This document shows, in pieces, positions 10,224-54,616 of a DNA stretch of 64,000 nt. The translations under genes were made by a program, and so were the position numbers. Position 1 is the first letter of the stretch. Each line of letters starts with the position of its first letter. The notes under the pieces are model-generated. The model saw only the letters and a program-made list of their open reading frames with translations, ran no database searches and was not told the origin of the DNA. The stretch covers positions 607 to 64,606 of the forward strand of contig JAZDKQ010000023.1 in assembly GCA_043802865.1 (NCBI GenBank), given 5' to 3'. Source of the DNA: Candidatus Moraniibacteriota bacterium (GTDB lineage Bacteria; Patescibacteriota; Minisyncoccia; Moranbacterales; UBA11712).

Positions 10224-10693
10224 AAAAAAGAATAAGAGATTATATAAAGCAATTTTTTTTGATCGACGATACGCCGCACAAAGTTGTCGGCGGGGCGGCT
10301 TTGGGGGCTTTTTTGGGGATTATACCGGGCGAGGGCGTTTTGGCAACGCTTTTTTTCGCGTATATTTTCCGGCTCAATCGCTTGGCGGCTCTTGCGGGAG
10401 TTTTGGCCTTCAATATGTGGACAACTTTCATCGCGTTGCCTGTCGCGGCCGCTATTGGCGGATTGATATTTCGCATTGATCCGCGGACGCTTTCGAATGA
10501 TTTCCATGAGACATTGAGTCTTGGGTGGCAATATCTTTTCAGCTGGAATGTGCTTCGCGAAACCGCCATCCCTCTTTTGACCGGCTATATTGTTCTCGCC
10601 GGATCTGTCGCGGCAATAATATATTTTTCTCTTTTCTATCTTCTGATCAAACGAAAAAAGCTCAAAGAAAAAGAACATTTATTGCTGAAATAG
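10220..10693 (+). CDS. DUF2062-family membrane protein
   Basis: GAALGAFLGIIPGEGV...LAALAGVLAFNMWT pattern. ATG at 10220. Confidence 0.5.
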   Translation: MKKRIRDYIKQFFLIDDTPHKVVGGAALGAFLGIIPGEGVLATLFFAYIFRLNRLAALAGVLAFNMWTTFIALPVAAAIGGLIFRIDPRTLSNDFHETLSLGWQYLFSWNVLRETAIPLLTGYIVLAGSVAAIIYFSLFYLLIKRKKLKEKEHLLLK

Positions 10694-10721
10694 AGACGCG
10701 ATTAATCGCGTCTCTACGGGG
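10691..10721. repeat. family-C palindromic element, copy 1 (intergenic)
   Basis: TAGAGACGCGATTAATCGCGTCTCTA is a perfect 26-nt palindrome followed by CGGGG. Same element at 28641 and 54371. Confidence 0.8.
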
Positions 10722-11408
10722 TTATTTTATCACTGTTCCCAGAAACTTTTTGCGGGTGAGATATCCTTCGAAATTTTTTAGTTTCTTTCCGTTCATGATC
10801 AAGACTTCCATTTTGAGCTCTTCAGCCATCTTTGAAGCGACGGGATCAAAAGGGGCGTTGAGTCCCGGATCCCACTTGTTGCCGACAATTTTTCGGAAAT
10901 CTTTCCATGAAATTTCTTTTATTTTTTTCGCGTCCGCAAACTTTTTGGGGTCCTTGGTATAGACATAGTCGATATTGGAAAGGTTTATCAGCGTTTTCGC
11001 GCCGTATTCTTTGGCGAGGATCACGGCGTCAAGGTCGGTGGAAAAACCGGGTTTCCAGCCGGCGCCGATCAGGATTTTTTCGCGGAAGTCGAATTTTTGA
11101 TAGGGATTTTTGTTGATGCGCGGGTGCGCGTATTTTCGGAATATCGTCCGCAAAAGATGACCATTGAGTCTCGTGGAATGGATTCCGATCCAGTCTCTAT
11201 CATCTTTCTCAATGACGCCGATCTTGAGAACGGCGTTTTGATATTGCCGGCAGATGGATCCTCCGCCGGAAATAATTATAAAGCGATTATTTTGTTTGAT
11301 AAATTTCAAAATAAGATCTTTGAAATTTTTCAAGAATTTCCAGTCTATTCCCTCCGGCGGGAAAATAAGAGACCCGCCAAGAGAAATGACAATAATTTTG
11401 TTTTTCAT
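10722..11408 (-). CDS. pyrH: UMP kinase-like (archaeal-type PyrH / amino-acid kinase fold)
   Basis: IIVISLGGSLI and ISGGGSICRQY motifs; about 228 aa. Confidence 0.5.
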   Translation of the reverse strand: MKNKIIVISLGGSLIFPPEGIDWKFLKNFKDLILKFIKQNNRFIIISGGGSICRQYQNAVLKIGVIEKDDRDWIGIHSTRLNGHLLRTIFRKYAHPRINKNPYQKFDFREKILIGAGWKPGFSTDLDAVILAKEYGAKTLINLSNIDYVYTKDPKKFADAKKIKEISWKDFRKIVGNKWDPGLNAPFDPVASKMAEELKMEVLIMNGKKLKNFEGYLTRKKFLGTVIK

Positions 11409-11418
11409 GATTTTTGAA

Positions 11419-11868
11419 TTATTTTATACAACACTTTGCTCCTTGAAACCCCCGGCCCTCGGCTTCTTCTTTGGAAGAAAAGCAAACCCTGTTTTCTGGT
11501 TTGATATTTTGGGCGTATCGGCACGTCGGGAGATGATATTTGTTTGAATTTTTGCTGGCAACGAAAGCGCATTTTTGGTTGTTGGCCGTCGCAACACTTT
11601 CTGTTGAAGCAGGTTTGCTGTTTGCGGATGCGGTTTTTGTGTCGCTTGCATCAGTTTGGCTTTGACCAGTATTCGCGCTTGCGACTTCAGCAGGCGCGAC
11701 TTTGTTCACAACGATCGGTTCTTGCTTGTTTTTTTGTCCTTTCAAAAATCCGGCCTCAAAAGAGATGGCGGCGATGAGGATTATGCCGATCGCCAATACG
11801 ATTTTTTGCTCATACTTAAGCCAAAATTGACCGATTCGGGATTCCTTGAAACGGGAGATGATTGACAT
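11419..11868 (-). CDS. membrane-anchored protein with C-terminal Ada-like Zn-binding domain
   Basis: N-terminal TM. C-terminus YHLPTCRYAQNIKPENRVCFSSKEEAEGRGFQGAKCC resembles the Ada metal-binding domain (CRPSC...ENV.FF.T.EEA..AGFRPCKRC). Confidence 0.45.
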   Translation of the reverse strand: MSIISRFKESRIGQFWLKYEQKIVLAIGIILIAAISFEAGFLKGQKNKQEPIVVNKVAPAEVASANTGQSQTDASDTKTASANSKPASTESVATANNQKCAFVASKNSNKYHLPTCRYAQNIKPENRVCFSSKEEAEGRGFQGAKCCIK

Positions 11869-11924
11869 CTGGGGGAAAATAAACTATTATTCTATAGTAA
11901 ATTCAATATCTTTGATTCAACTAT

Positions 11925-12197
11925 ATGGCACACAGAAAAGCAGGTGGCTCTACACAGCTTGGCCGAGATTCGCAATCCAAACGGCTCGGTGTCAAAAAAC
12001 ACGGCGGTGAAACGGTGAAAACCGGAAATATAATCGTTCGCCAGCGCGGGACAAAATTCCGCCCGGGTGAAAACGTGAAACGCGGCGGCGATGATACTCT
12101 TTTCGCAATGAAAGACGGAGCAGTCAAATTCGCTTCCAAAAAAATTCGCAAATTTACCGGCAGATTGGCCCGCGCGAAATTCGTGAGCGTGGAATAA
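11925..12197 (+). CDS. rpmA: 50S ribosomal protein L27
   Basis: [42 protein letters not shown] is canonical L27. Confidence 0.9.
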
Positions 12198-12220
12198 GCT
12201 ATCAGGAAACATATTAAAAA

Positions 12221-12250
12221 ATAGAAGCAACAAAGCTTCTATTTTTTTAT
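12221..12250. terminator. bidirectional terminator between rpmA and pyrG
   Basis: ATAGAAGC-aacaa-GCTTCTAT followed by TTTTTTT; A-run upstream. Confidence 0.55.
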
Positions 12251-13872: not shown

Positions 13873-13940
13873 GCTAATTTCAAGAAAATAGAGGTGAAAA
13901 GATATCACCCCTATTTTTAAATTTTTAATAATCTTATATT

Positions 13941-14387: not shown

Positions 14388-14492
14388 CCCGTTAGAAAAT
14401 TAATTATTATACCCTCGCTAGAAAATGCTTTTGTTTTCTAACGGGGTTCATTGGTTTTATTATAATTCAAAAAAATATTTTAGCAAACCCCC

Positions 14493-20403: not shown

Positions 20404-22065
20404 CTATAAATCTATTCTCCTCGAGTACGCAAGTGCTTGAAAGATAGAAGAGAAAGTTGCCAATCCCAGCCAAAACAATCCCATCAAGAGTCCCGCGTTG
20501 AAAAAATTTGGTATCAGGAGAGCCAGAAGGCTCAAAAACATAAATATATTCAAATTCTTTTCGAAATCATTCCGGATGATTGGACAGCCGATTATTTTAT
20601 TGAGCGGGCAAATGGGCGAAATTCGGCGGAAAGAATATATGAATAAATATCCGAAAATTATTGCAAAAGCAATCAGTCCCAAAATTCCGCTGCTTGCCCA
20701 AACCTGAAGAAAGATATTGCTCTCGTTCAGTCCCGCCCCTCTTTCGTCGGCTCCGAGCGCCTCGGTGATCGTTCCAAAACCGACTCCGAGGATTGGATGC
20801 TCGCGGATGATTTCGAAACTTTTTCGATAAATTTGGCTGCGAGTCATCACATTGGGGTCTTTCCGAAAAATTTCGGTGACGAATTTTCCTTGTGATTTAT
20901 AAGAATAAATTTCTTCGAGATTGATATGTCGGCAATTGAATTTGGCCAGTTCATCGGTGCTTGCAATCAATTGCGGGATATTCGCGCTGTTCTCGCACGC
21001 GATCGTGATTTTTTGTTCATTTGTCGCAGTTGATCGGGCGCGGTCGAAGATGTCGAACTTGGAAAGTTTTCCAAAATGGATCGCGATTACTGAAATTAGG
21101 GTGATTGCAAATATGATTGCTAATTGATTCAAAAACAAACGAGGGGCAAATTCAATTCGTTCTTTATTTTTTTTGTATAGATTAAAAAGCAAATAGAAAG
21201 CAATAACTGCCGCCGCACTAATCCACGCCGAGCGGGACAAAGTGAGGATGAGGAGAGTGATGTTGAGAAAGATTAATGCATAGGTTCCAGTTCGGGTGGC
21301 GCCCCCTCTCCTTGATAAGGAGAGGGCTAGGGTGAGGTTGATTGCCAGAGAAAAACACAAGAAAATCCCCAGCCAGTCGGGTTCTGTGAAGGTGGAATTC
21401 GGTCGGCCAAACATCACTTCAAATGACCGCGCGCCGAATTTGTCCGCAAAAACTTGCCAAAATCCATAGAACATAACAACCAAACTTGATCCAACAAAGA
21501 AAAAAGCAGTCTTAATAAAGTCGTTTTTATTCCGCAAAAAATTCCTGGCCAAATAATATAAAATAACAAAAGAAAACAATACCAAGCTGTTTTTGAGACT
21601 AATATTTTTAACTGGTGAGTTTATGACCGACAAGAAACTTAGCGGCACGAGCGAAAAAACCAGCCAGTCGATCCATGTGGGTTTCAGCAATTTGAAACTT
21701 AATCGTTTGGATAAATATAAAATAATCACCGCGACGGCGAGCTCCGCTCCCAGAAATTGATATGGCCGCAGTTGAAGCGGCAAAAATCCGGAAGCCAGAA
21801 TCACATTTTCCAGCGGCAAAAGCGAAACGAAAAGAAAAAATACCCATCGCGGGCGGTATAGCGCGACAAGAAGCGCCAAAATCGCGAAAAAAACAAAATC
21901 ACCCGCTCCCAGAGGTAATTTGTTCTTGCCGACAAAGACAATCAGCGCAAACCCCAACGCCACGCTGAAGATCCAGAGAAGAACAAGTTCTTTTTTTAAT
22001 AAATTTTTTATTTTCTGAAAATAATGATTAATCTCCATTACATTATTTGCCTGTAGTTTCTTCAA
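20404..22065 (-). CDS. O-antigen ligase/polymerase-like (Wzy_C) polytopic membrane protein
   Basis: Ten or more TM helices; TLSRSAWISAAAVIAF resembles the Wzy_C SRgaWla motif; sits in a glycan locus. Confidence 0.45.
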   Translation of the reverse strand: MKKLQANNVMEINHYFQKIKNLLKKELVLLWIFSVALGFALIVFVGKNKLPLGAGDFVFFAILALLVALYRPRWVFFLFVSLLPLENVILASGFLPLQLRPYQFLGAELAVAVIILYLSKRLSFKLLKPTWIDWLVFSLVPLSFLSVINSPVKNISLKNSLVLFSFVILYYLARNFLRNKNDFIKTAFFFVGSSLVVMFYGFWQVFADKFGARSFEVMFGRPNSTFTEPDWLGIFLCFSLAINLTLALSLSRRGGATRTGTYALIFLNITLLILTLSRSAWISAAAVIAFYLLFNLYKKNKERIEFAPRLFLNQLAIIFAITLISVIAIHFGKLSKFDIFDRARSTATNEQKITIACENSANIPQLIASTDELAKFNCRHINLEEIYSYKSQGKFVTEIFRKDPNVMTRSQIYRKSFEIIREHPILGVGFGTITEALGADERGAGLNESNIFLQVWASSGILGLIAFAIIFGYLFIYSFRRISPICPLNKIIGCPIIRNDFEKNLNIFMFLSLLALLIPNFFNAGLLMGLFWLGLATFSSIFQALAYSRRIDL

Positions 22066-23607: not shown

Positions 23608-23641
23608 CAGCCCGAGGCTGATCCGCCTTGGGCGGAAGACC
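23608..23641. repeat. family-A-like GC-rich palindromic element (intergenic, variant)
   Basis: CAGCCCGAGGCTGATCCGCCTTGGGCGGAAGACC. Same subtype as the insert at 43171. Confidence 0.6.
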
Positions 23642-25717: not shown

Positions 25718-27643
25718 ATGGTCATCGATCTCCTAAAATTGATTCTCACAATCCCCTTTCTCCTTGTTTTGCCGGGGTTCTTTTTCCAATTGGCTGTTTT
25801 CGGCATGAAAAGCAGAAAAATATCTTTTTTTGAAAAAGCGGTCTTGACCGTTCCATTCAGCCTGATTGCCGTCAACTTGATCATTTTGCTTCTGGACAAG
25901 TTGAATATTCTGCTGAAAGGCCCGGTGATCGTCGGGGCTGTGCTGATATTTTGTGCTGTGTGTTTCGCGGTTTTTCAATTTCGATTCGGAAAGAAAAAAA
26001 ACAAAGAGGATGGCGTGGAGCCTGAAAAAATATTTAATTTTTCCACTTGGCAGACGATTTTCATTCTTCTTGCAATCGTTCTGGCGATTTTCATCCGCAC
26101 AGCCTATCTCTCCGATACGATCGTCCCCTCTTCAACCGATCTGGGACATCATATGTATTGGTCCCAGATGATCATCAATTCTGGACATCTTCCCGAATAT
26201 GGAATGCCGGACTTCATCATCGGTGAACATATCGTTTTTTCCGCGGTGAATCTTGTGAGCGGGGCGGGATTGATGTCGGCGATGCCGGCGCTTCTCCTTT
26301 TTCTTTTCAACATCACAGGAATTTTCACCATCGCGATCCTGCTTGGTCGGATATTTGAAAACAAAAAGATCGTCGCTGTTTCTTTTTTCGTCGCCGGATC
26401 TTTGTACGCAATAAACGCGCCGCAAGGGCGATATGTGAGCGGCGGAGTCATTGGAAATATCATTGGCGATATGCTGATTCCCGTGGCGCTATATTTTCTC
26501 TATCGTGCTCTCACCGAAAAAGATCAAATTTTTGCCGGCCTATTCCTCTTTTCATTCGCGGGACTGCTTTATACCCATCATTTGAGTGCGTTTATTTTTA
26601 TTTTTTCAATTGTTGCTATCATAGCTCTGTATCTGATATTGAACTTCAGAAATATCTTCAAGATTGCCGGAGATTGGCTGAAAGTGTTTTTGAAGCCGTT
26701 TCCTCTCGCGATTTTGCTGCTGGTCGCCTTCTTTTTTCTGTTTGTTTTCACACCGTCATATTTCAATTCAGCTGCGGTGAGTCAAGCCACGGGTACGCCC
26801 ACGAAGATCACGCGAGTTGGCTTGAGTTTGAGTCAAATTGAGAGAGGCATCGGAAGCGCCCAATTGTTTTTGGCCGGACTCGGGTTTCTTTTGGTCCTTC
26901 TTGAACTGTTTAGAGAAAAAGAATGGTCCGCCCGAGGCGGATCTCAGCCAAAGGCTGACCAGCCTCTGGCCGGCGCCGAAAAATTTGGCGGAAAATATTC
27001 CGTCGCACTTAGCTGGATTTTGATCCTTTTTGTCATGACATGGAAGCCGGCACTTCTGGATGTGAATATTCCCAGCGACCGGATAAGTAATTATTTGTTT
27101 TTGCCGATCGCTCTTCTCTCCGCCTACGGCTTGGTGCGATATTTTGAAATTTTTGGCGCGGCAGCCTCCCGCTTCTCTTCGGCTGTTTTGCTTTTCACGC
27201 TCCTGTTTTTCGTCATCACGAACGGACTTTCGGACAGCGCGGACGCCTTCAAGACAAAAAACCAATTTCAGCAAGCGGTGCAAACTTTTCACTCGGCCGA
27301 GTATCTGGCGTCAACAGTGGACACAAACAAAGATATAATTTTGAAAGACCATGTGAACATATACGGAGATTCGTGGTACAAATTGTTTTTTATGAAAGAT
27401 TATAAATATCCCCTCTCTCGAGGAGTTCTCACGCGATATGTTGATCCGACAAAAACGCGCGAAACTTGTACGCGGGACATGATCTCTTTTCCGGAAAGCG
27501 ATACCGCGAAGGAATGTTTTGCCGATACGGGCGTGAACTACGTCGCCGTGAATTCCCAGATCGAAGGCAATAGTTTTGAAAAATACCCGGATTTCTCAAA
27601 AGTCTACGGCTCGGATTATATTTCTATTTTTAGAAGAGATTAA
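25718..27643 (+). CDS. large polytopic membrane protein (possible GT-C-type glycosyltransferase/polymerase)
   Basis: At least 12 predicted TM helices plus a C-terminal soluble domain. No firm motif. Carries a family-A element in-frame at 26928. Confidence 0.4.
   Translation: MVIDLLKLILTIPFLLVLPGFFFQLAVFGMKSRKISFFEKAVLTVPFSLIAVNLIILLLDKLNILLKGPVIVGAVLIFCAVCFAVFQFRFGKKKNKEDGVEPEKIFNFSTWQTIFILLAIVLAIFIRTAYLSDTIVPSSTDLGHHMYWSQMIINSGHLPEYGMPDFIIGEHIVFSAVNLVSGAGLMSAMPALLLFLFNITGIFTIAILLGRIFENKKIVAVSFFVAGSLYAINAPQGRYVSGGVIGNIIGDMLIPVALYFLYRALTEKDQIFAGLFLFSFAGLLYTHHLSAFIFIFSIVAIIALYLILNFRNIFKIAGDWLKVFLKPFPLAILLLVAFFFLFVFTPSYFNSAAVSQATGTPTKITRVGLSLSQIERGIGSAQLFLAGLGFLLVLLELFREKEWSARGGSQPKADQPLAGAEKFGGKYSVALSWILILFVMTWKPALLDVNIPSDRISNYLFLPIALLSAYGLVRYFEIFGAAASRFSSAVLLFTLLFFVITNGLSDSADAFKTKNQFQQAVQTFHSAEYLASTVDTNKDIILKDHVNIYGDSWYKLFFMKDYKYPLSRGVLTRYVDPTKTRETCTRDMISFPESDTAKECFADTGVNYVAVNSQIEGNSFEKYPDFSKVYGSDYISIFRRD
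26928..26978. repeat. family-A element (extended variant) in-frame in membrane protein gene
   Basis: TCCGCCCGAGGCGGATCTCAGCCAAAGGCTGACCAGCCTCTGGCCGGCGCC encodes SARGGSQPKADQPLAGA. Confidence 0.6.
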
Positions 27644-27648
27644 AAACT

Positions 27649-28020
27649 ATGTCATCAAAAATAATCATCATCGCTACGGTCGTGCTTCTCATCGTGAGCT
27701 TCTCGGTGCTTTTTGTCATTGAAGCCAAAAATCACGATTACGATTACAAAAAAGCATGGAGCGTCGTGTATTTTGAAAATCCGCGGAACAATTCGCTCGA
27801 TTTCGCGGTTGAAAACCATGAAGGCGAAAAATCAGAATACGGCTACAAAATTTTTGTTGGTGACGACAAAGTGATCGATGAAAAGGTTGAGATTGAAGCC
27901 GGCGCCAAACAAAAAATCTTACCGGTGATCCCGAGCGAGAAATTGAAAGGAAACAAGATTTTGATTGACGTCAGCTACAAAGATACGGATTATAAGATAT
28001 ATAAAAGTTTGGGGAAATGA
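27649..28020 (+). CDS. small membrane-anchored hypothetical protein
   Basis: N-terminal TM (IIIIATVVLLIVSFSVLFVI); 123 aa. Confidence 0.35.
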   Translation: MSSKIIIIATVVLLIVSFSVLFVIEAKNHDYDYKKAWSVVYFENPRNNSLDFAVENHEGEKSEYGYKIFVGDDKVIDEKVEIEAGAKQKILPVIPSEKLKGNKILIDVSYKDTDYKIYKSLGK

Positions 28021-29153
28021 AAAAGATATTATTATTGACTCGGCCGATTTGTTCCCCGTGGGATGAAGGGTCGAAAAATTTTGCCTATACCCTTGCCAAA
28101 TACGCGAGTGATTTTGAAATTCATATATTAACATGCGGATCTTTAGCGGATTTGGCGGATAATATTGTTCAACATCAGATTTATACATCGCCGAAACTGG
28201 ATTTTTCTCAAAAATTCAGATTATTTAAGTTTCTTAAAAAGGCTAATGATTTTGATATCATTCATTCCCTTTTTACTCCGACAAAACTAAATTCTTTTTT
28301 TATCAAGTTTGCGTTGAAGAGTAAAAAAGCAAAATTTATTCAAACTGTTGCTACTTTGCGCGAAGATTTGTATAGCGAGGGAGATTTCAAGAAAATATTA
28401 TTCGGTGATCAGATCATCACCTATTCCGATTATGCCAAAGAAAAACTGGAGAAAATGGGTTTTGATAAAATAAAAAGAATTTATCCTGGGATTGACATTG
28501 AAAAATACTCTCCTTCTCCAAAAAATCAGGAACTCATGAAAAAACTCGAAACGAGTGAGGATGATTTTGTCATCAATTATGCCGGCGAGTATGTGCGGCT
28601 TGGGGATATGGATGATATTATCGAGACGTTTATCGGACTCGTAGAAACGCGATTAATCGCGTCTCTACAGGGAGAAATTAAAAAGAATTTCAAACTACAT
28701 CTCGCCGTGCGGGTGAAGAATGAAAAAGACGCAAATAAGAAAAAAGAAATTATTAAAAAATTAGAAAGAGAAAATATCCTGGACAGGGTGGCTTTTATTG
28801 ACGACGGCAGTTATGAGATGCAAGATATCTTTAATCTCTGTGATATTTCCATTTTCCCCGCGCGCACAATGGCCGGGAAATTTGATATTCCCCTGGCTGT
28901 CATCGAGGCGATGGCTTGCGGAAAGCCGGTGGTCGCGAGCAATCTTGAAAGGATTAAATATTTTCTCAGCAATGAAAATAGCATCCTGATCGCGCCCGGA
29001 AACCGTGAAGTCCTCAAAGAGAATATTTTGTATCTATATAATAATCCAGAAAAACGATACGATTTGGCAAAAAAAGCGATAAGGTTCGTTCGGGAAAACT
29101 TTGATATAATGAAAGTGGTGAAGGAGTATGAAGAAGTTTATGAAAAACTATGA
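28017..29153 (+). CDS. family 4 glycosyltransferase carrying an in-frame family-C palindromic element
   Basis: C-terminal FPARTMAGKFDIPLAVIEAMACGKPVVASN. Element at 28641-28671 reads VETRLIASLQG. Confidence 0.7.
   Translation: MKKILLLTRPICSPWDEGSKNFAYTLAKYASDFEIHILTCGSLADLADNIVQHQIYTSPKLDFSQKFRLFKFLKKANDFDIIHSLFTPTKLNSFFIKFALKSKKAKFIQTVATLREDLYSEGDFKKILFGDQIITYSDYAKEKLEKMGFDKIKRIYPGIDIEKYSPSPKNQELMKKLETSEDDFVINYAGEYVRLGDMDDIIETFIGLVETRLIASLQGEIKKNFKLHLAVRVKNEKDANKKKEIIKKLERENILDRVAFIDDGSYEMQDIFNLCDISIFPARTMAGKFDIPLAVIEAMACGKPVVASNLERIKYFLSNENSILIAPGNREVLKENILYLYNNPEKRYDLAKKAIRFVRENFDIMKVVKEYEEVYEKL
28641..28671. repeat. family-C palindromic element, copy 2 (in-frame inside GT4 gene)
   Basis: GTAGAAACGCGATTAATCGCGTCTCTACAGGG. 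Offset from the ATG is 624 nt, which is a multiple of 3. Confidence 0.8.
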
Positions 29154-30625
29154 ACATTGAATCTCTATTCGCTCACAAAAAGAAATTTCAAACGGACAAA
29201 ATGAAAGTCCCGGCGATTTTGCATTGCTCGGACAATCTTTTGCCGAACGAAAAAACTCTCGCGCAGCTTGAAAATACCGCTTCGCAAGAACATGTTTTTC
29301 ACCACATTGCGGCGCTTTCGGATGTTCACGACAAAAAAGGCCGCAAAAATCCGACCGGGACAGTTGTCGCGAGCGAAAATTTTCTTTTGCCGCAGATCAA
29401 CGACACGGCGCCAAACTGCGGAATGCGGTTTTTGAAAACGAATCTAACAGACGCTGATTTGGCTCCGGAAAATATCAACAAATTATTCAACGCCCTTTTG
29501 AAGCCGGTTCCGACAAAAGCCTACGTCGGATCGAAAATTCCATATTCTCTTGTCGTGGATATATGCCGGCACGGACTTAAGCCGGTGACGGAATATTTCA
29601 AGACGCGAACAAAAAATGAGATCAAAAATACTTTCAAGGGCGGAAATTTTTTTTCCGCCGAAGGCGGATCCGCCTCTGGCGGAGACATACCCAGCAAACA
29701 AGATATCACTGACGCTATTCCCCAGTTGTTTTTGTGGATTGGAAAATTTCGTCTCGGAATTCTTGGAGCGGCAGGAAATCATTTTTTGGATCTCATGAAG
29801 ATATCCGAAATAAAAGATCCTGAAATGGCAGAAAAATTTGGGATCAAAAAAGGACAATATATTTTTATGATGCACACTGGATCAGGACTTTTGGGACAGT
29901 ATGCATCGTACCTGTATACTCCAAAGAAAAAAGAACATACAAGCCAGCGCATTGTGCTTGAACTTGGGAAACTGACATGGCGATCCGGAAAGAAAGATAC
30001 CTACAAGAAAATTGCGAAGAAAATCGCCGAGTATAAAGATAAAGACGAATTTTTCGCCTATGACGCGGAATCCCCCGAAGGAAAAATGTTTTTGACGGCG
30101 CATCAAGCAGCGGGCAATCAAGGATTTGCCAATCGCTGCATTCTCACTCACAATCTTGATCAGACAATTGAAAAAGTTTTGGGAAAAAATCCCGAGCTAG
30201 AACTCCTTTATGACGCGCCGCATATTTTTGTGAATCGCGAAAACCATTTTGGAAAGGATGTTTGGGTGCATCGCAACGGCGCTGTCCGGGCGATTGCCGG
30301 AGAACCCGTTTTCATTCCGTCTTCTATGTCAACTCCTGCCTATCTGGCTGTTGGCACTGATCAGAATGAATCAACATTTTTTTCTGCCGCTCACGGCACC
30401 GGACGACGAAAAAATCCCGAAAGCAACAAAGCCGGGACAAAGGACGAATTGTTCGCGAAAATGCAGCAGCGAAAAGTAAAATTGTTCAACGCCAAATCAA
30501 AAGGTGTGGTTTTTCAGGATTCAGGATATTATAAGGATGTTGAAGAAGTGATCGCCGGAATGGAAGAAAACAAAATCGTGAAACCGGTGGCGAAAATGGA
30601 ACCAATTGCCGTTTTAATGTACTAA
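29150..30625 (+). CDS. rtcB: RtcB-family RNA ligase (divergent), carrying an in-frame family-A element
   Basis: LSDVHDKKGRKNPTGTVVAS (compare MPDVHxGxG), APNCGMRF (compare DINCGVRL), HTGSGLLGQ, HRNGAVRA, PSSMSTPAYLAVGT, AAHGTGRR. Confidence 0.65.
   Translation: MNIESLFAHKKKFQTDKMKVPAILHCSDNLLPNEKTLAQLENTASQEHVFHHIAALSDVHDKKGRKNPTGTVVASENFLLPQINDTAPNCGMRFLKTNLTDADLAPENINKLFNALLKPVPTKAYVGSKIPYSLVVDICRHGLKPVTEYFKTRTKNEIKNTFKGGNFFSAEGGSASGGDIPSKQDITDAIPQLFLWIGKFRLGILGAAGNHFLDLMKISEIKDPEMAEKFGIKKGQYIFMMHTGSGLLGQYASYLYTPKKKEHTSQRIVLELGKLTWRSGKKDTYKKIAKKIAEYKDKDEFFAYDAESPEGKMFLTAHQAAGNQGFANRCILTHNLDQTIEKVLGKNPELELLYDAPHIFVNRENHFGKDVWVHRNGAVRAIAGEPVFIPSSMSTPAYLAVGTDQNESTFFSAAHGTGRRKNPESNKAGTKDELFAKMQQRKVKLFNAKSKGVVFQDSGYYKDVEEVIAGMEENKIVKPVAKMEPIAVLMY
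29653..29684. repeat. family-A element in-frame in rtcB
   Basis: TTCCGCCGAAGGCGGATCCGCCTCTGGCGGAG encodes SAEGGSASGGD. Confidence 0.7.
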
Positions 30626-37828: not shown

Positions 37829-38812
37829 TTGATTAATAAACCAAAAATTGTATTCTTCGGCACGCCGGAATTTGCGGCGGGGGTTTTGAAATCGCTTGTT
37901 GGCAACAAATACAATATTGCTTTTGTCTTCACTCAGCCGGACAAAAAAATTGGGAGAAGACAAGAAGTTGTTTTTTCTCCGGTGAAAGATTTGGCGCTGA
38001 AAAACAAAATTGAAATATTTCAGCCGGAAAGTTTGCGAGACAGTGAATTGGCCGAAAAGATTAAAAAAATTGGCGCTGATCTTTTTGTTGTCGCCGCGTA
38101 TGGGAAAATATTACCCAAAGATATATTGGAAATTCCAAAATATGGAGCGATAAACATTCACGCATCTCTCCTTCCAAAATATCGCGGAGCGTCGCCGGTG
38201 CAATGTGCTATCCTCTCTGGAGAAAAAGAAACAGGGATCACAGTGATGAAAATGAACGAAAAGATGGATGAGGGTGATATTTTGGCGCAGAAAAAGATAG
38301 AGATCGGCGAAAATGAAACGGCGGATTTATTGTTAAATAGGCTGTCAAAAATTGGAGCGGACATGATTGGCGAATTTATTCCCGACTGGATTTCCGGAAA
38401 AATAAAGTCGATTCCTCAAGATCAAAATATGGCGACTTATTGCAAGCCGGTCAAGCGCGAAGACGGGAGAATAGATTGGAATTGTCCCGCCGAAGAAATA
38501 AGCTGCAAATGGCGAGCCTATTATCCCTGGCCGGGAATATATTCAATAATAAATATCTCCGCCAGAGGCGGATCCGCCTTTGACGGAAAAAATCAGCCCA
38601 AAAGGCTGAAATTGTTGGAGATAGAGATTATTCCCAATATAAAGACTGGCGAAAAAACCGGGAAAATTATAGAATATGATCAGAAAGTTGCCGTTCAAAC
38701 GGAAATTGGATTGATAATTTTGAAAAAAGTTCAACTTGAAGGGAAGAAGGAAATAGATATCGATGAATTTTTGAGAGGCAATGTCGGATTCATTGGAAGT
38801 ATTTTGGAATAA
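37829..38812 (+). CDS. fmt: methionyl-tRNA formyltransferase, carrying an in-frame family-A element
   Basis: MINKPKIVFFGTPEFA; SLLPKYRGASPVQ; C-terminal domain present. TTG start. Confidence 0.85.
   Translation: MINKPKIVFFGTPEFAAGVLKSLVGNKYNIAFVFTQPDKKIGRRQEVVFSPVKDLALKNKIEIFQPESLRDSELAEKIKKIGADLFVVAAYGKILPKDILEIPKYGAINIHASLLPKYRGASPVQCAILSGEKETGITVMKMNEKMDEGDILAQKKIEIGENETADLLLNRLSKIGADMIGEFIPDWISGKIKSIPQDQNMATYCKPVKREDGRIDWNCPAEEISCKWRAYYPWPGIYSIINISARGGSAFDGKNQPKRLKLLEIEIIPNIKTGEKTGKIIEYDQKVAVQTEIGLIILKKVQLEGKKEIDIDEFLRGNVGFIGSILE
38557..38587. repeat. family-A element in-frame in fmt
   Basis: CTCCGCCAGAGGCGGATCCGCCTTTGACGGA encodes SARGGSAFDG in the C-terminal domain. Confidence 0.7.
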
Positions 38813-42828: not shown

Positions 42829-42901
42829 GGCTGGGGTGCTAGGATTCGAACCTAGGATCATGGGACCAGAACCCATTGCCTTACCACTTGGCTACACCCC
42901 A
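42829..42901 (-). tRNA. tRNA-Gln (anticodon CUG)
   Basis: TGGGGTGTAGCCAAGTGGTAAGGCAATGGGTTCTGGTCCCATGATCCTAGGTTCGAATCCTAGCACCCCAG. U1-A72 and G73 as in bacterial tRNA-Gln; anticodon loop TTCTGGT. Confidence 0.85.
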
Positions 42902-46101: not shown

Positions 46102-46172
46102 GGCGGGATTAGTTCAGTGGCAGAACACGACCTTCCCAAGGTTGAAATACGGGTCCGATTCCCGTATCCCGC
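46102..46172 (+). tRNA. tRNA-Gly (anticodon CCC)
   Basis: GCGGGATTAGTTCAGTGGCAGAACACGACCTTCCCAAGGTTGAAATACGGGTCCGATTCCCGTATCCCGCT; anticodon loop TTCCCAA. Confidence 0.8.
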
Positions 46173-46179
46173 TCTGAAA

Positions 46180-46252
46180 AGCCGATGTAGCTCAGTTGGC
46201 AGAGCGACACACTCGTAACGTGTAGGTCCGCGGTTCGATCCCGCGCATCGGC
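46180..46252 (+). tRNA. tRNA-Thr (anticodon CGU)
   Basis: GCCGATGTAGCTCAGTTGGCAGAGCGACACACTCGTAACGTGTAGGTCCGCGGTTCGATCCCGCGCATCGGCT; anticodon loop CTCGTAA. Confidence 0.8.
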
Positions 46253-47305
46253 TCAGAACACCGAAGGATCCCCTTCGGAATTGGCGGGAAGGTTTTGCTC
46301 GAAAGTTCGCATTCCGCCGTCGCGGAACTCGATTTGAGTATTGCTTGAATTCCACTGGTAGTCTTTCAAGAATATTGTAACCGAGTAAACCTTCGTTTTT
46401 TCTTTCAACCAGTCGGCAAAAGTGGTTTTTTTCACGAAAATCTGGCGAAGATGCACCAAATCAAATCCGTTGTCCATCTTTTTCTCTTCCAATTTCAGAA
46501 CATGGAACCCAAGCGGGCTTTCGATCGGTTCACTGATCTCCCCCGTTTTCATCGAAAACGCTTTGTCTGCGACAGTTTGGATCAGCTGATCTTTCGTCGA
46601 CCAGCCGAGATCGCCTCCGTTTTCCGCGCTTTGTCCGTCTGAATTTTCTTTCGCCACTTTTGCGAAATCCTCTTTTTTGCTTGTCGCTTTTTCATAGAGC
46701 GATTTTATTTTTGCTTGCTGAGTGCTTGTGTCCATTTCATTCACATAAACTTCCGCCAATTTTTCGCTGTACATTCCGGGCTTCACAACTTTTTGTTCGA
46801 AGTCATTGATGGTCCAGCCGTATAGTCTTGCAAGGTCGCTCATCAAATTGTCCTTGTTTCCGAATTGTTGGATAGTGCTCTCAAGTTCCGTGGAGACAGC
46901 ACTGTTAGTGAGTGTGATACCGCGCTTTTGAGCAAGATTTTCGATCACCTTGTTTTCGATCATTTTATTTATGATCTCTTTTTCCTTGACTTGGAGTCTT
47001 TTTACTCCTTGATCGGTTGAAAAATCAACTCGCATGCCGATTTTTTCGAAGTCCTGCGATTCATAGAATTTTTTGACGGAAGCTACATTGACTTTGATCT
47101 CATTGACACTGATGGATCCCGCTCCGCGGACATATACGGCCGGAAACGGAATGACTTTGGTCGCGCCAACAAAAAAACGGTTGTTCCAATTGAATTTATA
47201 GACGCCAAGAACCAAAAACAGCAAAAATACAAAAATCGCGCCGGCGGCAACGCCGACAATTATCCAAATTTTGTGTTTTTTGAGATTTCCTTTTTTGTTG
47301 GGCAT
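46253..47305 (-). CDS. membrane-anchored parvulin-type peptidyl-prolyl isomerase (PpiC/PrsA-like)
   Basis: N-terminal TM; parvulin segment GGDLGWSTKDQ...ISEPIESPLGFHVLKL. Confidence 0.55.
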   Translation of the reverse strand: MPNKKGNLKKHKIWIIVGVAAGAIFVFLLFLVLGVYKFNWNNRFFVGATKVIPFPAVYVRGAGSISVNEIKVNVASVKKFYESQDFEKIGMRVDFSTDQGVKRLQVKEKEIINKMIENKVIENLAQKRGITLTNSAVSTELESTIQQFGNKDNLMSDLARLYGWTINDFEQKVVKPGMYSEKLAEVYVNEMDTSTQQAKIKSLYEKATSKKEDFAKVAKENSDGQSAENGGDLGWSTKDQLIQTVADKAFSMKTGEISEPIESPLGFHVLKLEEKKMDNGFDLVHLRQIFVKKTTFADWLKEKTKVYSVTIFLKDYQWNSSNTQIEFRDGGMRTFEQNLPANSEGDPSVF

Positions 47306-47316: not shown

Positions 47317-47430
47317 AATCCTCCCCTCCTCAACTGAGGAGGGGGCAGGGGGAGGTGTTGTGATAATGCAGAAAACTTATCAACACCCCTCTGTCCTTCG
47401 GACATCTCCCCTCATCTGAGGGGAGAAGGA
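47317..47430. repeat. family-B structured element, copy 2 (intergenic, directly upstream of 46253..47305)
   Basis: 114 nt: ATCCTCCCCTCCTCAACTGAGGAGGGGGCAGGGGGAGGTGTTG...CAACACCCCTCTGTCCTTCGGACATCTCCCCTCATCTGAGGGGAGAAGGAT. On the minus strand its end provides a GGAGG motif upstream of the PPIase ATG. Confidence 0.8.
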
Positions 47431-48006: not shown

Positions 48007-49881
48007 CTATTTTCGCAAAACCGCCAAAAAGGCGCTGCTCGGGATTTCAACCCGTCCGAGATTGGTCATCTTTTTCTTTCCTTTTTTCTGCTTTTCAAGC
48101 AATTTTCTCTTGCGGGTGATGTCCCCGCCATACAACTTGGCCGTCACGTCTTTTCGGAAGGCTTTGACTGATTCGCGAGCGAGGATTTTTCCGCCAACGG
48201 CTGCTTGAAGGGCAATCACGAAGTTTTGGCGCGGAATGACATCCTTCAACTTTTCCACGGTGGCTTTGCCATCCGAAAAAACTTTTTCTTCCGGAACTAT
48301 TCTTGAGAAAGCGTCAATCCTGTCGCCCCCAACAAGAATATCGAGTTTCACGAGCTTGTTCGGCCGGTACCCAAGAAACGCATAGTTCATCGAAGCATAT
48401 CCACTCGAAGCGCTTTTCAGCTGGTCATGCAAATTGATGATGACGTCCGTGAGAGGAGATTCAAAGGTGAGGATCAGTCTTTCCGCGTCTATATATTCCG
48501 TGTTCTTGTATTCCGCTCGCGTGCTCCGCATCAGATCCATAATCGAGCCGAGATATTTTGAAGGAGAAATGAGATCGAGTTTCACATAGGGCTCTTCAAT
48601 GGATTCAATGATCGAAGGATCCGGCATTTCAAGGGGAGAATATATTTTAATTTTTTTTACTTTTCCGCCCGAGGCGGATCCGCCTTTGGCGGATATTTCA
48701 TATACCACGCTTGGAGTGGTAATGACTGGGTCTATTTCAAATTCCCTTTTGAGTCTTTCCTGGACAATTTCTATATGAAGGAGTCCTAAAAATCCGCAGC
48801 GAAATCCCCGTCCTAGCGCCAGATTGGCTTCCGGTTCAAACGCGAACGCGGCATCGTTGAGTTTCAATTTTCCCAGCGCGTCTCGCATGAAGTTGTAATC
48901 GTCTCCTTCTTTCGGATAGAAACTGGCATAAACAACCGGCCGGATCTCTTTGTATCCGGGAAGCGCCTGCATTTCGCCTGGGTTTTTTTCCAAAACGATC
49001 GTATCGCCGACGCGGCAGTCTTCGACGGTTTTGAATCCGGTCGCGATGTATCCGATATCGCCCGCGGACAATTCATTTGTTTTTTCCAAATTCGGCTTGA
49101 AATGGCCGACTTCGATCACGGAACTTCCCTGCTTGGTCGCCATAGCGAGAATTTTTTCTTCGGCATGGATCTTTCCGTCGACAATTCGGACATAGGCGAG
49201 AACTCCTCTGTAGGTATCATATTTTGAATCAAAAATGAGAGCGCGAAGAGATTTTTCCTGTTTTCCTTTGGGAGAAGAAATTTTTTCGACGATCGTTTCA
49301 AGAATTTTTTCAACGCCTTCCCCTGTTTTCCCACTGGCCTCGAGAATTTCTTCTTCCTTGCAGCCGAGAAGATGAACGATTTCTTTTTTCGTTTTTTCTA
49401 TCTCGGCGTTCGGAAGATCTATTTTGTTGATCACGGGAATGATTTCCAGCCCCTGTTCGATGGCATAATAGAGATTGGCGACTGTCTGCGCTTGTACGCC
49501 TTTTGACGCGTCCACAAGCAAAACCGCGCCCTCCACAGCGGCCAGGGAGCGAGAAACTTCATATTGAAAGTCCACATGCCCGGGAGTGTCTATGAGATTC
49601 AAGATAAAAAAGTCCGGCTTTGAGGAATTGGAGGCGTCAGCCGACAAGGGAAAAGCCGGACTTTGATTTGAAATCCGAGGACTATAAATCATCCTTACGG
49701 GTTGTAATTTTATAGTAATGCCACGCTCGCGCTCAAGATCCATCGTGTCCAGAAGCTGTTCTTTCATCTTTCGATCTTCGACCGTATGCGTAATCTCAAG
49801 CATCCGATCGGCCAGAGTGGATTTCCCATGATCGATATGCGCGATTATACAAAAATTCCGGATGTTTTGCTGGTTATTCAT
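48007..49881 (-). CDS. lepA: elongation factor 4 (LepA) carrying two in-frame palindromic insertions
   Basis: IIAHIDHGKSTLADR, NLIDTPGHVDF, conserved C-terminal domain. Extra segments GGSASGG and SPRISNQSPAFPLSADASNSSKPD. Confidence 0.9.
   Translation of the reverse strand: MNNQQNIRNFCIIAHIDHGKSTLADRMLEITHTVEDRKMKEQLLDTMDLERERGITIKLQPVRMIYSPRISNQSPAFPLSADASNSSKPDFFILNLIDTPGHVDFQYEVSRSLAAVEGAVLLVDASKGVQAQTVANLYYAIEQGLEIIPVINKIDLPNAEIEKTKKEIVHLLGCKEEEILEASGKTGEGVEKILETIVEKISSPKGKQEKSLRALIFDSKYDTYRGVLAYVRIVDGKIHAEEKILAMATKQGSSVIEVGHFKPNLEKTNELSAGDIGYIATGFKTVEDCRVGDTIVLEKNPGEMQALPGYKEIRPVVYASFYPKEGDDYNFMRDALGKLKLNDAAFAFEPEANLALGRGFRCGFLGLLHIEIVQERLKREFEIDPVITTPSVVYEISAKGGSASGGKVKKIKIYSPLEMPDPSIIESIEEPYVKLDLISPSKYLGSIMDLMRSTRAEYKNTEYIDAERLILTFESPLTDVIINLHDQLKSASSGYASMNYAFLGYRPNKLVKLDILVGGDRIDAFSRIVPEEKVFSDGKATVEKLKDVIPRQNFVIALQAAVGGKILARESVKAFRKDVTAKLYGGDITRKRKLLEKQKKGKKKMTNLGRVEIPSSAFLAVLRK
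48664..48695. repeat. family-A element in-frame in lepA
   Basis: TTCCGCCCGAGGCGGATCCGCCTTTGGCGGAT encodes SAKGGSASGGK (minus-strand reading). Confidence 0.7.
49609..49664. repeat. family-D palindromic insertion in the lepA G-domain region
   Basis: AAAGTCCGGCTTT...31 nt...AAAGCCGGACTTT (13-bp inverted repeat). Coincides with about 18 extra residues before NLIDTPGHVDF. Confidence 0.55.
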
Positions 49882-49920
49882 ATTCTTTAATCTACCTCAT
49901 TTTCGTCTTTTTGCAAATAA

Positions 49921-49960: not shown

Positions 49961-49986
49961 GCATCTTCTGCTGAGTCGTTGGTCGA

Positions 49987-50331: not shown

Positions 50332-50452
50332 TTTTCCAACCCCCTTTTTGTGTGATTTCTAGCGATTTAGCTAGATGTTAAATCATAGTGAAGAAAAAGT
50401 AATACGTCAAATAGAATTTACCTAAAATCTATAATATTGCTTTATACAAGTC

Positions 50453-52087: not shown

Positions 52088-54616
52088 CTATTTTTCTACT
52101 GCCAGTCCCACAAACTTGTCCGTATTCAAAACAGTTTCCATTTTGAGTGAGTTGTCATTTTGTTTCGCGTTGTCCGGCCAGCGCCAGATTGTTTTCAGAT
52201 TGTCCGGCAAATTCACCTCAGAAAAAAGTTTGCTACCAACGCTTCCAGATTGTTTTTGATAGAGGACGGAAAAAGAATCAGCGGGATGTTGCAGTGAATC
52301 GAAACTCAATTTGAAAGGTAGCGCGTATTTGTATGTGATCGTTGTTGATTCGCCCGGACTGACGTATACCCAGTTCGCAAAAACGGTTTTGTTGTTTTCG
52401 TCATATATTTTCGTTCCTGATTCTTCGTCGATTCGGGCGGAATCGTCTTCGGCCTGGACTTGAGGATCTTTTTTGAATCCAAGTGATTGATAGTCGAGCG
52501 CCGGCGGTACGAATTCACGTGTTTGGCCGGAAACTTCAAGAAGTTTCGCGCCATCGGGAACATATACTCGCATCCAGTCTCCATTCACCTTGTTCCACCA
52601 GTCATAATTCTCATTGCCTCCGTTATGTTTGCGCGTTATGGAAACCGTGTCAACAATACTCCCATCAGATGCAATTTCGCTTTTGTGATCAATTGTTTCG
52701 TCGATCACACCGTCGGTCTTGAAGCCATTGATATTGGTGTTGATCACCGACAAAAAATCTTTGTCAGTATTCAAAATTTCTCCCGACCATTTTTGGTCAG
52801 AGATCAATTTTTGAATATTGAAGTTTCTTGAATAAAGAAGCAGATGTTTTTCCGAGAGGGCGGTGTTGAAAGCCTTGAGCGTTTTGAGCACCGAGACAAG
52901 TCCTTTTTCGCTCATCACTTTGTCAAGAATTTTCGGCGTGAGGTCGGCGACGAATTTCTTCGGCTGATTCAATTCTTTGTCATAATCAAGTTCGACTTCC
53001 TGCTGGGTTTCCTCAATGAAGTTGTCTGCGTCGATAGTTTTGTTGTATTCCGGCATATCGATCGGTCCGGTGATTGCAAGAAGGTCGCGAAGTAGTTCAG
53101 GAGTGATCGCGATCACTCCGTCCACGGTCGGTCCTCCTGTTTTTTCATAGAACCAGGAAACTTTTTCGGCCGAAGTTGGAAAATTCGGGAACCAGTTGGC
53201 GTCATGCATGGTCCAAACGGCGCTCATTTTCTGGATCGGAGCGGGTGGGATGACGCGGGCTTTGAGCTGGCCGTCCGGATTGTATATATCGTCCACGAAA
53301 AGTTTCTTCACCCGACCGTTCCCGATGTCAAGAATCCCATAGCTTCCGATGAAACCGCCCGTTGCCCGCATTTCCTGATTGTTTTCAAAGAGAAACAAAT
53401 ATTTTCGCGGACCGTTGTATCCGAGAACATCAAGGAATATCTGGGAATAGTCAAGAAAATTTTTGAGGCTCTCATTGACAAGAGGCAATTTGCTCTTAAG
53501 CTGGGCAAATTGTTCCCGCATTTCAAGAGGCAGATCATCAATATTGACTTTGTCGAGGTCATCTTGGGCCACCGAAAGTTCTCCGCTTGATTTTTGGATC
53601 CCGTCTCGTAAATTCAAAAATAGGTCCGTGAGTGAAGGCTGATCGGCTTGATTTGCACCGTCAAGAGGATTGCCAATCAAATTGAGCGATTTTGCCGATT
53701 CGGCGAGACTTTTTCCGGCCAGCGAAAAATGCTCTCCGGCGGAAACGACATAGTTGGCGCTTGCAATTTTGGAAATTCCGGGCACAAAACGCAAAATCTC
53801 GCTGAAATTGCCTCCAATATGCGCGATATCACTATTGGCATCGGAAAGAATTTGATAAGACTCGGAAAAATCAACCGCGGCCTTATCAAACTGGCTGTTT
53901 GAAAGATTGTCCTTTGCTTCGGCAAATTGTCCGAGAGCTCTTTCGCCTGTTGCGACAAGTTTTTTTTTCATATCAAGTGCTTTTTGGACATAGGAAAGAG
54001 CGGGAATTGAAAAAGAGAATAGAAGCAGAATGCAGGCAAACGAAACTGCATAACTGAAACTCGGAACCGAAGAAAAATCTTGCGAAAAAATATTTTTTTG
54101 AATTTTCAATTTGCTTAAATTTGGAATAAGCTTTCCGGAAAGTTTTTTGATCGACTCGATTTGCTTTTTCAGTGATAATTTTCTGGATCTTTTTTTGAAT
54201 ATTACTTTTTTCGGCTCAGGCTTGGTTATCCTTTCCGAAAAAGTTTCTAGTTTTGGCTGATATAGTTCGTCAGAAATATTAAAATATTTATTGAACAACT
54301 CTGGTTTTTTTGGCTGAAAATTGATTTCCTCTTGCAGAGACGCAAAATCTTGCTTCTCAACTGCGTTTTCGCCCGTAGAAACGCGATTAATCGCGTCTCT
54401 ACTTTCGCAAACAATTTTTGGCCCAACGACATCAGCCATGCGCAAACCATGCCTATTTGCTGAAATATTTTTTTTGTATATTTTTTTGTCCGGAAGAGTG
54501 ACCATTCGCCTCAATTTTTTTATTTTCGCCAAATTCAAAGAACCGTCCGAATTTACCGGCTTCACATCGAACATCTGGGGCAGAATGTTTTTTCGTTTTG
54601 ACATTTTTATCCGCAA
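52088..54616 (-). CDS. DUF4012-domain protein (TM-anchored, large extracytoplasmic domain); family-C element near the 5' end
   Basis: GPRKYLFLFENNQEMRATGGFIGSYGILDIGNG matches the DUF4012 core. Single TM about 180 aa from the N-terminus. Confidence 0.55.
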   Translation of the reverse strand: MRIKMSKRKNILPQMFDVKPVNSDGSLNLAKIKKLRRMVTLPDKKIYKKNISANRHGLRMADVVGPKIVCESRDAINRVSTGENAVEKQDFASLQEEINFQPKKPELFNKYFNISDELYQPKLETFSERITKPEPKKVIFKKRSRKLSLKKQIESIKKLSGKLIPNLSKLKIQKNIFSQDFSSVPSFSYAVSFACILLLFSFSIPALSYVQKALDMKKKLVATGERALGQFAEAKDNLSNSQFDKAAVDFSESYQILSDANSDIAHIGGNFSEILRFVPGISKIASANYVVSAGEHFSLAGKSLAESAKSLNLIGNPLDGANQADQPSLTDLFLNLRDGIQKSSGELSVAQDDLDKVNIDDLPLEMREQFAQLKSKLPLVNESLKNFLDYSQIFLDVLGYNGPRKYLFLFENNQEMRATGGFIGSYGILDIGNGRVKKLFVDDIYNPDGQLKARVIPPAPIQKMSAVWTMHDANWFPNFPTSAEKVSWFYEKTGGPTVDGVIAITPELLRDLLAITGPIDMPEYNKTIDADNFIEETQQEVELDYDKELNQPKKFVADLTPKILDKVMSEKGLVSVLKTLKAFNTALSEKHLLLYSRNFNIQKLISDQKWSGEILNTDKDFLSVINTNINGFKTDGVIDETIDHKSEIASDGSIVDTVSITRKHNGGNENYDWWNKVNGDWMRVYVPDGAKLLEVSGQTREFVPPALDYQSLGFKKDPQVQAEDDSARIDEESGTKIYDENNKTVFANWVYVSPGESTTITYKYALPFKLSFDSLQHPADSFSVLYQKQSGSVGSKLFSEVNLPDNLKTIWRWPDNAKQNDNSLKMETVLNTDKFVGLAVEK
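54371..54402. repeat. family-C palindromic element, copy 3 (reverse orientation; inside the 5' part of the DUF4012 ORF)
   Basis: CCCGTAGAAACGCGATTAATCGCGTCTCTAC encodes ESRDAINRVSTG on the minus strand. Confidence 0.8.

Follow-up and report, generated by a model that had tools for sequence, protein, structure and literature searches.

The stretch analyzed here, hereafter the window, comprises 64,000 nt of a Candidatus Moraniibacteriota contig (JAZDKQ010000023.1, positions 607–64,606), and all coordinates below are window positions. It contains three intact copies and one decayed copy of a 28-nt palindromic element, a candidate repetitive extragenic palindromic (REP) sequence. Copy 1 (ATAGAGACGCGATTAATCGCGTCTCTAC, 10690–10717, followed by GGGG at 10718–10721) lies between a DUF2062 gene on the plus strand (10220–10693) and a convergent amino-acid-kinase-family gene on the minus strand (10722–11408, stop codon 10722–10724), which ends 4 nt beyond it. 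Copy 2 (GTAGAAACGCGATTAATCGCGTCTCTAC, 28641–28668, followed by AGGG) is in frame within a plus-strand open reading frame (ORF) for a GT4 glycosyltransferase (28017–29153). Copy 3 (54375–54402, preceded by CCC) presents the same 28-mer as copy 2 on the plus strand and is located in a minus-strand DUF4012 gene (52088–54604; 838 aa in the NCBI annotation). This gene also hosts the degenerate fourth member (GCAGAGACGCAAAATCTTGCTTCTCAAC, 54334–54361), which matches GTAGAGACGCAAAATCTTGCGTCTCTAC at 25 of 28 positions, is read as VEKQDFASLQ and, in a hairpin scan, sits 13 bp from copy 3. The intact copies are dispersed at spacings of 17.9 and 25.7 kb and do not form an array.

The three intact copies share the pattern (G/A)TAGA(G/A)ACGCGATTAATCGCGTCTCTAC. 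A search of the window with the degenerate 28-mer, allowing up to three mismatches, returned three matches vs. none in 100 dinucleotide-preserving shuffles, which bears out the near-identity claimed in the first-pass annotation of this DNA; the 14-nt core is far less decisive alone, with 0.59 matches expected when two mismatches are allowed. The perfect 26-nt palindrome reported for copy 1 was recovered at 10691–10716. Each copy was folded as single-stranded DNA, giving −12.3 kcal/mol (z −6.1) for copy 1, −9.2 kcal/mol for copy 2, and −8.9 kcal/mol for copy 3 (−10.5 kcal/mol on its other strand), and all of these hairpins were more stable than each of 200 shuffles. The computed folds have a stem of 11–12 bp and a loop of 4 nt; the stem of copy 1 is perfect, and those of copies 2 and 3 include one A–C mismatch on the plus strand, which becomes a G–T pair on the minus strand. 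Copies 2 and 3 begin with GTAG. The first base of copy 1 is A instead of G, so that its foot reads ATAG on the plus strand and GTAG on the minus strand, and the 3′ foot CTAC is present in all three copies. An Rfam scan at gathering thresholds identified no family at the copies.

On either strand alike, a perfect copy offers two stop-free reading frames (VETRLIASL and RDAINRVST) and a third one that contains TAG and TAA; each of the three window copies uses a frame of its own. Copy 2 is translated as VETRLIASLQG, its G-to-A arm change being synonymous (GAG to GAA), and the minus-strand reading of copy 3, ESRDAINRVSTG (RDAINRVST), forms part of the DUF4012 protein's N-terminal tail; both readings are as first annotated. 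That either strand should yield almost the same peptide is correct in principle, but the intragenic copies use different frames and their peptides therefore differ. The reverse orientation assigned to copy 3 applies to its GGG flank and to its host gene, but not to the element, whose single asymmetric base (GAAACG) does not change strand between copy 2 and copy 3. Copy 1, described as following the DUF2062 stop codon, does stand at the end of that gene, but the TAG of its own foot (10691–10693) serves as the stop codon. Copy 1 and the GGGG together leave no free nucleotide before the convergent gene's stop codon.

Such a position could suggest a functional hairpin selected by the host, for example, a bidirectional terminator, an mRNA-stabilizing stem, or a protein-binding site, that is no longer mobile: copy 1 takes up the 28-nt gap between convergent genes, REPs generally favor positions downstream of ORFs, and copies in phage contigs lie between structural genes. 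We consider this explanation very unlikely. A terminator scan of 10400–11000 does not call copy 1, and the T-run begins 6 nt past the stem. Moreover, two of the window copies and about one third of the copies found elsewhere (see below) are located inside long ORFs, intragenic copies gain stem-breaking synonymous changes and decay as they become older, and local selection cannot yield near-identity across phyla. Of the three copies, only copy 1 might serve as a terminator, and it may have been exapted for some secondary function.

Comparison with orthologous proteins shows that copies 2 and 3 were inserted into their host genes. Of the 116 full-length GT4 orthologues compared (the window's protein included), 100 have a six-residue linker (consensus AKENKN) in place of the insert. 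These empty sites in relatives, which the first-pass annotation had proposed to look for, are in line with its notion of a dispersed, insertion-type palindrome. The other 16 orthologues, including that of the window, have an insert at the site. Ten of the inserts are GTAG-foot hairpins with differing inner sequences (peptides VETRLIASL, VETQNFASL, VETRHGASL, VETR(Q/H)CLVST, VETPCRDVST, and TKTPQRGVST), and six come from two unrelated palindrome families (GGAYMR...AAY.RPL and IPxxxG...LDPRFRGDD). In the DNA alignment at this position, the window and the comparison loci L123 and L122 (L-numbers are labels of comparison loci) contain three different family members, and L121 is empty. Filled orthologues are interspersed among empty ones in a neighbor-joining tree, which implies many independent gains, replacements, or losses at one position.

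The GT4 insert is located just before the second β-strand of the C-terminal Rossmann domain. In an AlphaFold model of the protein (mean pLDDT 85), it extends a surface helix and loop with lower local confidence; this predicted structure would fit a permissive site, and the precise hot spot is not explained by the model alone. A second variable spot of the GT4 protein (alignment columns 58–66, approximately 28160–28190) has inserts in orthologues, ENGGSTSVWRSNLQ or LSPNWGLK, and none in the window protein; these may be other small palindromic insertions.

At the DUF4012 gene, the closest relative (L241, 89% identical protein) contains a perfect consensus hairpin at the site of copy 3, indicating that copy 3 was inherited and that its C-to-T change, which is synonymous, occurred later. 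Both DUF4012 REPs fall within the poorly conserved N-terminal tail, and decayed remnants of the VEKQDFASLQ hairpin are present at the same place in most orthologues, which indicates a long history of REP entry into this lineage. The G-to-A variant shared by copies 2 and 3 was identified in only 1 of 126 copies elsewhere. We considered it as proof of copying within the genome and rejected this, because L241 reveals that copy 3 still had the consensus form when it was inherited; each change is, in the frame used by its copy, a synonymous transition at the third codon position, so that the two copies may have drifted in parallel.

Since neither intragenic copy disrupts the reading frame, and the peptide is retained in the closest DUF4012 relative, one might ask whether the conserved unit is a protein motif (ETRLIAS or RDAINRVS) and the palindrome incidental. 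We give this practically no credence, in agreement with the first-pass annotation, which had favored an insertion over a conserved coding motif. The motif is missing from the 100 GT4 orthologues with an empty site, and its predicted structure is only an extended helix and loop of lower confidence. Furthermore, in other genomes of the Candidate Phyla Radiation (CPR) type, the same 28-mer is in frame within the unrelated genes for RecG, TsaD, RNase H, MnmA, and UvrC, and copies elsewhere occur in two frames and both orientations, also inside transposase genes (see below) and in intergenic DNA of many phyla.

The distribution of the element was assessed by scanning GTDB, one genome per species, with GARACGCGATTAATCGCGTYTC as the query. 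The 22-mer core was identified in at least 120 genome loci from about 10 phyla. According to record titles, the loci listed include 58 from Cyanobacteria (mostly Nostocales), 38 from Bacteroidota, 10 from CPR/Patescibacteria, four from Gammaproteobacteria, three from FCPU426, two from Myxococcota, one each from Spirochaetia, Abditibacteriaceae, and Altimarinota, and two that are unclassified. At nearly all loci, the similarity is bounded by GTAG and CTAC, and the flanks are unrelated. A plasmid collection contained two exact matches only, both cyanobacterial and both unannotated, and literature searches for the element sequence retrieved nothing relevant.

Viral contigs were scanned with GTAGAGACG-N10-CGTCTCTAC, the middle being left free so that the inner stem was unbiased. 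This revealed 116 loci with 124 non-redundant copies and 55 different inner 10-mers, nearly all of which are self-complementary or almost so, with CGATTAATCG being the commonest (19 copies). Inner 10-mers that vary and yet stay self-complementary indicate co-variation of the inner stem, a signature of a selected hairpin. The element of the window is one variant (inner CGATTAATCG) of a superfamily, GTAGAGACG-N10-CGTCTCTAC, with constant outer arms. The “family C” of the first-pass annotation, taken as private to this genome, is accordingly replaced by a superfamily shared across phyla.

In Nostocales (L007, L017, L026, L031, L050, L074, L078, L094, and others), the 28-mer is typically found inside tandem heptamer repeats that continue on both sides of it, for example, AGTATGA, GAGTTAG, and GAATTAC. 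Partial tandem duplications of one arm (e.g., ...CGTCTCTAC joined to GATTAATCGCGTCTCTAC) and nested or stuttered copies were seen at L053 (2398), L022 (885), L129 (2416), L067, L068, L002, and L103. One phage present in several samples (L129–L131, L145, and L151) has double-foot REPs, 1857 bp apart, on either side of a capsid-type gene, and the inner sequences of the pair differ (CAATAGCTTG and CAATATTTTG). Such pairs in phage contigs were considered as ends of an insertion sequence and dismissed, since the interval is the capsid-type gene and the hairpins are intergenic. A link to repair genes, raised by “UvrA-like” neighboring ORFs at eight loci, was likewise dismissed as ABC-ATPase paralogy, there being no element in those ORFs.

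Direct repeats were compared at every offset between 228 copies and permuted flanks, and no excess was detected at any offset; the search for target-site duplications suggested in the first-pass annotation is thus negative. A 6-nt GCGAAA repeat around copy 3 (GCAAAA on both sides in L241) was examined as a possible duplication and, given the lack of excess over the 228 copies, is treated as chance. We observed no fixed insertion target; there is a weak T...A preference at positions −1/+1, and the base following CTAC is A in 42–50% of cases. Approximately 9% of the genomic copies are exactly centered in a longer palindrome of 6–16 bp, compared with 0.1% expected, suggesting that some insertions went into the tips of existing hairpins. 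Copies at L010, L019, L040, L061, L089, L085, and L097 occupy either the exact middle of a longer perfect palindrome, with as many as 16 bp on each side, or the loop of a hairpin resembling a terminator (TTCGCCC...GGGCGAAAAAAA).

The GGG that had been noted as a target or flank preference is found beside every window copy and beside the remaining hairpins of the GT4 site, but it is not a general preference, as in 222 copies elsewhere only approximately 7.5% of sides have GGG no farther than 5 nt from the foot. It was also rejected as part of the mobile unit because the variant arm is distal to GGG in copy 2 and proximal to it in copy 3, and because GGG is rare elsewhere. A junction of CTAC with GGGCGAAA recurs in window copy 3, L122, L085, and L097, and resembles the arm of another REP type of the same transposase subclass as that proposed below (subclass 2.4), GTAGGGGCGAAA....

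These flank properties fit the action of an HUH/Y1 enzyme on single-stranded hairpins and not that of a DDE transposase. A miniature inverted-repeat element mobilized by a DDE transposase, a stray CRISPR repeat, and an assembly or cloning artefact are all suggested by the CRISPR-like length, the palindromy, and the GAGACG...CGTCTC arrangement, which amounts to two inverted BsmBI sites. All three are extremely improbable: target duplications are absent from the 228 copies and 28 nt is too short for terminal inverted repeats plus a spacer; the window holds only three copies, 18 and 26 kb apart, and no array; and the same insert at the same site is present in an independent assembly (L241), with the element also being found in finished genomes (Quentin et al., 2018; BMC Genomics 19:475, PMC6006769).

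The association of the hairpin family with REP-associated tyrosine transposases (RAYTs) was approached from both sides, by clustering the ORFs that adjoin the element over all loci and by retrieving 80 metagenome loci with a RAYT protein alignment alone. From the side of the element, eight of the 38 Bacteroidota loci listed have it in frame inside a gene of approximately 200 codons, between the first and the later of its motifs (VVMPNH[IV]H, WQxRFHDHI, and YIxNNP), and some of these genes hold two to four copies. The aligned proteins contain VVMPNH[IV]H, (A/T)W(Q/H)xR(F/Y)(H/Y)(D/E)(H/R)I, and YI(E/I/F)(N/V/E)N(P/V), with the REP-derived inserts located after the HuH motif and before the Y motif. 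They thereby agree with the motifs of TnpA_REP subclass 2.4, NH[IFV]H, WQ, and YIxNNP, and with the variable insert that separates HuH from Y in this subclass (Quentin et al., 2018), and they match NCBIfam NF047646 (REP-associated tyrosine transposase) with E-values of 8e-15 to 7e-12. In one Bacteroidota RAYT gene (L035, 2593–3360), the linker between HuH and Y contains four consecutive REP-derived segments (AETQLID..., AETRLIAS, AETRLIAS, and VKTRLIAS), that is, an in-frame REP array.

From the side of the enzyme, a double-foot hairpin lies in the RAYT ORF or no more than 500 bp away at 50 of the 80 loci, and 41 have one inside the ORF. The density of hairpins is 0.64 per kb in or near the RAYT ORF vs. 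0.027 per kb elsewhere in the same loci. These loci contain 86 hairpins in total, 77 of which are in the gene or within 500 bp and 53 of which begin with GTAGAGACG. Hairpins within and beside one RAYT gene usually have the same inner sequence, and two genes (at L250 and L255) contain the exact consensus of the window, GTAGAGACGCGATTAATCGCGTCTCTAC. The association between the hairpin family and the RAYT clade is solid in both directions. In viral contigs, RAYT genes are rare (two loci) although the hairpins are common, so phages are not obviously carriers of the enzyme.

Based on these results, the element is likely a double-foot REP, the cognate repeat of RAYT subclass 2.4 (Bertels group 4). 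The cognate REPs of this subclass include double-foot forms with a 5′ GT[AG]G and a 3′ C[TC]AC, and 28-nt examples such as GTAGAGACGCACGGCCGTGCGTCTCTAC and GTAGAGACAAGGCATGCCTTGTCTCTAC have been tabulated (Table S1 of Quentin et al., 2018, PMC6006769). Similar to them, the element is 28 nt long, has GTAG and CTAC feet, a 12-bp stem with a 4-nt loop, and arms of the form GTAGAGAC(G/A)...(C/T)GTCTCTAC; the stem falls within the range described for the subclass, which is (almost) fully paired over 7–20 nt with a loop of 2–5 nt. Like the published REPs, it is found in frame in genes, the RAYT gene included, and in Cyanobacteria, Bacteroidetes, and scattered other phyla. Unlike the tabulated sequences, it has the inner CGATTAATCG (the ATTAATCGCG variant), which is absent from that table. 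The published sample consisted of complete genomes and did not mention candidate phyla, whereas the host here belongs to Moranbacteria and no RAYT gene adjoins the window copies.

On this identification as a double-foot REP, the following mechanism may be proposed. The element is a 28-nt hairpin with a stem of 12–13 bp, a loop of 2–4 nt, a GTAG 5′ foot, and a CTAC 3′ foot, so that both strands present the same GTAG-hairpin. It would form in single-stranded DNA, for instance, at a replication fork, where a monomeric HUH/Y1 nuclease, the RAYT, could recognize the foot (GTAG) together with the conserved AGACG at the stem base. The enzyme would then cut and rejoin the strand and thus place the hairpin elsewhere without a target duplication. 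The data show that the repeat belongs to this family, that it is associated with RAYT genes, that the copies are insertions, and that they lack a target duplication; the enzymology, and any RAYT activity persisting in this genome, are inferred. Because each strand has two stop-free frames, copies that land in permissive loops or tails can survive as in-frame inserts; the third frame supplies TAG and TAA, and copy 1 now gives a gene its stop codon. Copy 3 came to this Moranbacteria genome from an ancestor, and the copies are now drifting under coding constraint. TnpA of IS200/IS605 and, in vitro, TnpA_REP of Escherichia coli act on single-stranded DNA hairpins.

Several points weigh against this identification. 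The Bacteroidota proteins score 45–55 bits against NF047646, under its equivalog cut-off of 80 bits, and match Pfam Y1_Tnp weakly; the low profile scores are in part due to the inserts, which split the domain. Neither profile hidden Markov models nor a search for the HUH...Y motif detected a RAYT-like ORF in the 64-kb window or in approximately 200 kb of other CPR DNA, so that the cognate transposase sought by the first-pass annotation is missing from the window, and the CPR DNA had no apparent relative among the 80 metagenome RAYT loci. A single-copy RAYT in a genome of approximately 1 Mb would usually escape so small a sample. The same GT4 codon position is reused by family members and by unrelated palindromes, which a simple RAYT model does not predict. 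The GTAG of classical REPs is unpaired and on one strand only, whereas here it is paired with CTAC and present on both strands. In addition, we know of no RAYT that moves a REP in vivo; the activities known to us are binding and cleavage/rejoining in vitro by the E. coli enzyme.

A different route is offered by the small dispersed repeats (SDRs) of Nostocaceae. They are reportedly hairpins of 21–27 nt, said to be confined to that family, for which movement through an RNA intermediate, and hence independent of a RAYT, was proposed; embedding in heptamer repeats and nested copies have reportedly been described for them, with SDR5 at a fixed HIP1 position. The element resembles these repeats, as described, in its size range and hairpin and, in Nostocales, in heptamer embedding and nested copies: copies from Nostoc, Calothrix, and relatives lie in tandem heptamers and show nested or partial self-insertions (L007, L017, L078, L002, L067, L068, and L103). 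We regard the SDR interpretation as improbable because the element occurs in about 10 phyla, whereas SDRs are said to occur only in Nostocaceae, and because the two-way RAYT association points to a DNA-level HUH route, with no sign of reverse transcription. The SDRs and the element may be the same thing under another name rather than true rivals.

Several other palindromic systems invite comparison. The Rickettsia palindromic elements, reportedly 100–150 bp long and found only in Rickettsia, are likewise selfish palindromes that persist in protein-coding genes as in-frame inserts, and to our knowledge they have neither a GTAG foot nor a RAYT partner. In IS200/IS605 and their miniature derivatives, the subterminal hairpins are also single-stranded DNA hairpins served by an HUH/Y1 enzyme without target duplication; they form, however, the ends of a larger element, which has its own tnpA or borrows one, and insertion is beside a fixed target of 4–5 nt, for which there is no counterpart here. 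Classical REPs and REPINs associated with RAYTs are known from E. coli and Pseudomonas (Bertels and Rainey, 2011, PMC3116915; Di Nocera et al., 2013, PMC3733652). They share with the element the GTAG guide at the hairpin foot, dispersed copies, a preference for gene ends, a presumed HUH/Y1 mobilizer, and occasional in-frame intragenic copies, for which DNA-repair genes are frequent hosts (as are recG and uvrC here in the CPR relatives). Their sequences are species-specific, in contrast to the double-foot sequence studied here, which is nearly invariant across phyla.

The palindrome belongs to a described system, REP/RAYT subclass 2.4, and does not constitute an element class of its own. Compared with the literature read, what is new is modest: a GTAGAGACG-type REP that is nearly invariant in sequence over at least 10 phyla and common in phage contigs; its occurrence in CPR genomes, in frame in the GT4, DUF4012, RecG, UvrC, TsaD, MnmA, and RNase H genes; and one GT4 linker position that was hit independently many times. 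For genome annotation, VETRLIASL and RDAINRVST in hypothetical proteins represent REP read-through. The findings are also relevant to the influence of small palindromes on the proteins of reduced genomes and to the question whether REPs are truly mobilized by RAYTs.

At least 10 different GTAG-foot variants and two unrelated palindrome families occur at one GT4 codon position in scattered lineages. On this basis, we put forward, as a speculation that is probably wrong, that double-foot REPs in Moranbacteria, and perhaps in CPR bacteria generally, are more than fossils and are repeatedly swapped or re-inserted at a few fixed positions of housekeeping genes, maybe without a resident RAYT. The enzyme might then be provided in trans by phages or host bacteria, or REPs might exchange strands foot to foot. 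If this were true, REPs would constitute a cassette-like source of peptide variation in the surface loops of proteins in reduced genomes.

Other palindromes were also identified in the window. A second family, TCCGCC-N4-GGCGGATCCGCC-N4-GGCGGA, forms two adjacent hairpins and has three copies (29654–29683, 38558–38587, and 48664–48693), at least one of which is in frame in an RtcB-like ORF (GGSASGG); it is without the GTAG foot and is therefore a different family. Related half-forms at 26947–26970 and 23610–23633 were also found, and half-forms read PKADQPLAG in the ORF at 25718–27643. A third hairpin family with arms of the CCCTCTCC/GGAGAGGG type is located at 21304–21326, 47323–47344, and 47403–47428, as well as on the contig of a relative (L123, 1354–1412). 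The region 7683–7731 is a 49-nt near-perfect palindrome, CATAACACATCTATTCCTAAAGTT A AATTTTAGGAATAGATGTGTTATG, whose 24-nt arms are 96% complementary around a 1-nt center, and overlapping imperfect inverted repeats rich in TAGCATTTAGTAT and ATACTAAATAC motifs are clustered at 4634–4728. The only matches of the Rfam scan in the window were an RNase P RNA (bacterial class A, 178.6 bits) and three tRNA genes, at 60934–61333 (minus strand), 42831–42901 (minus strand), and 46103–46253 (plus strand).

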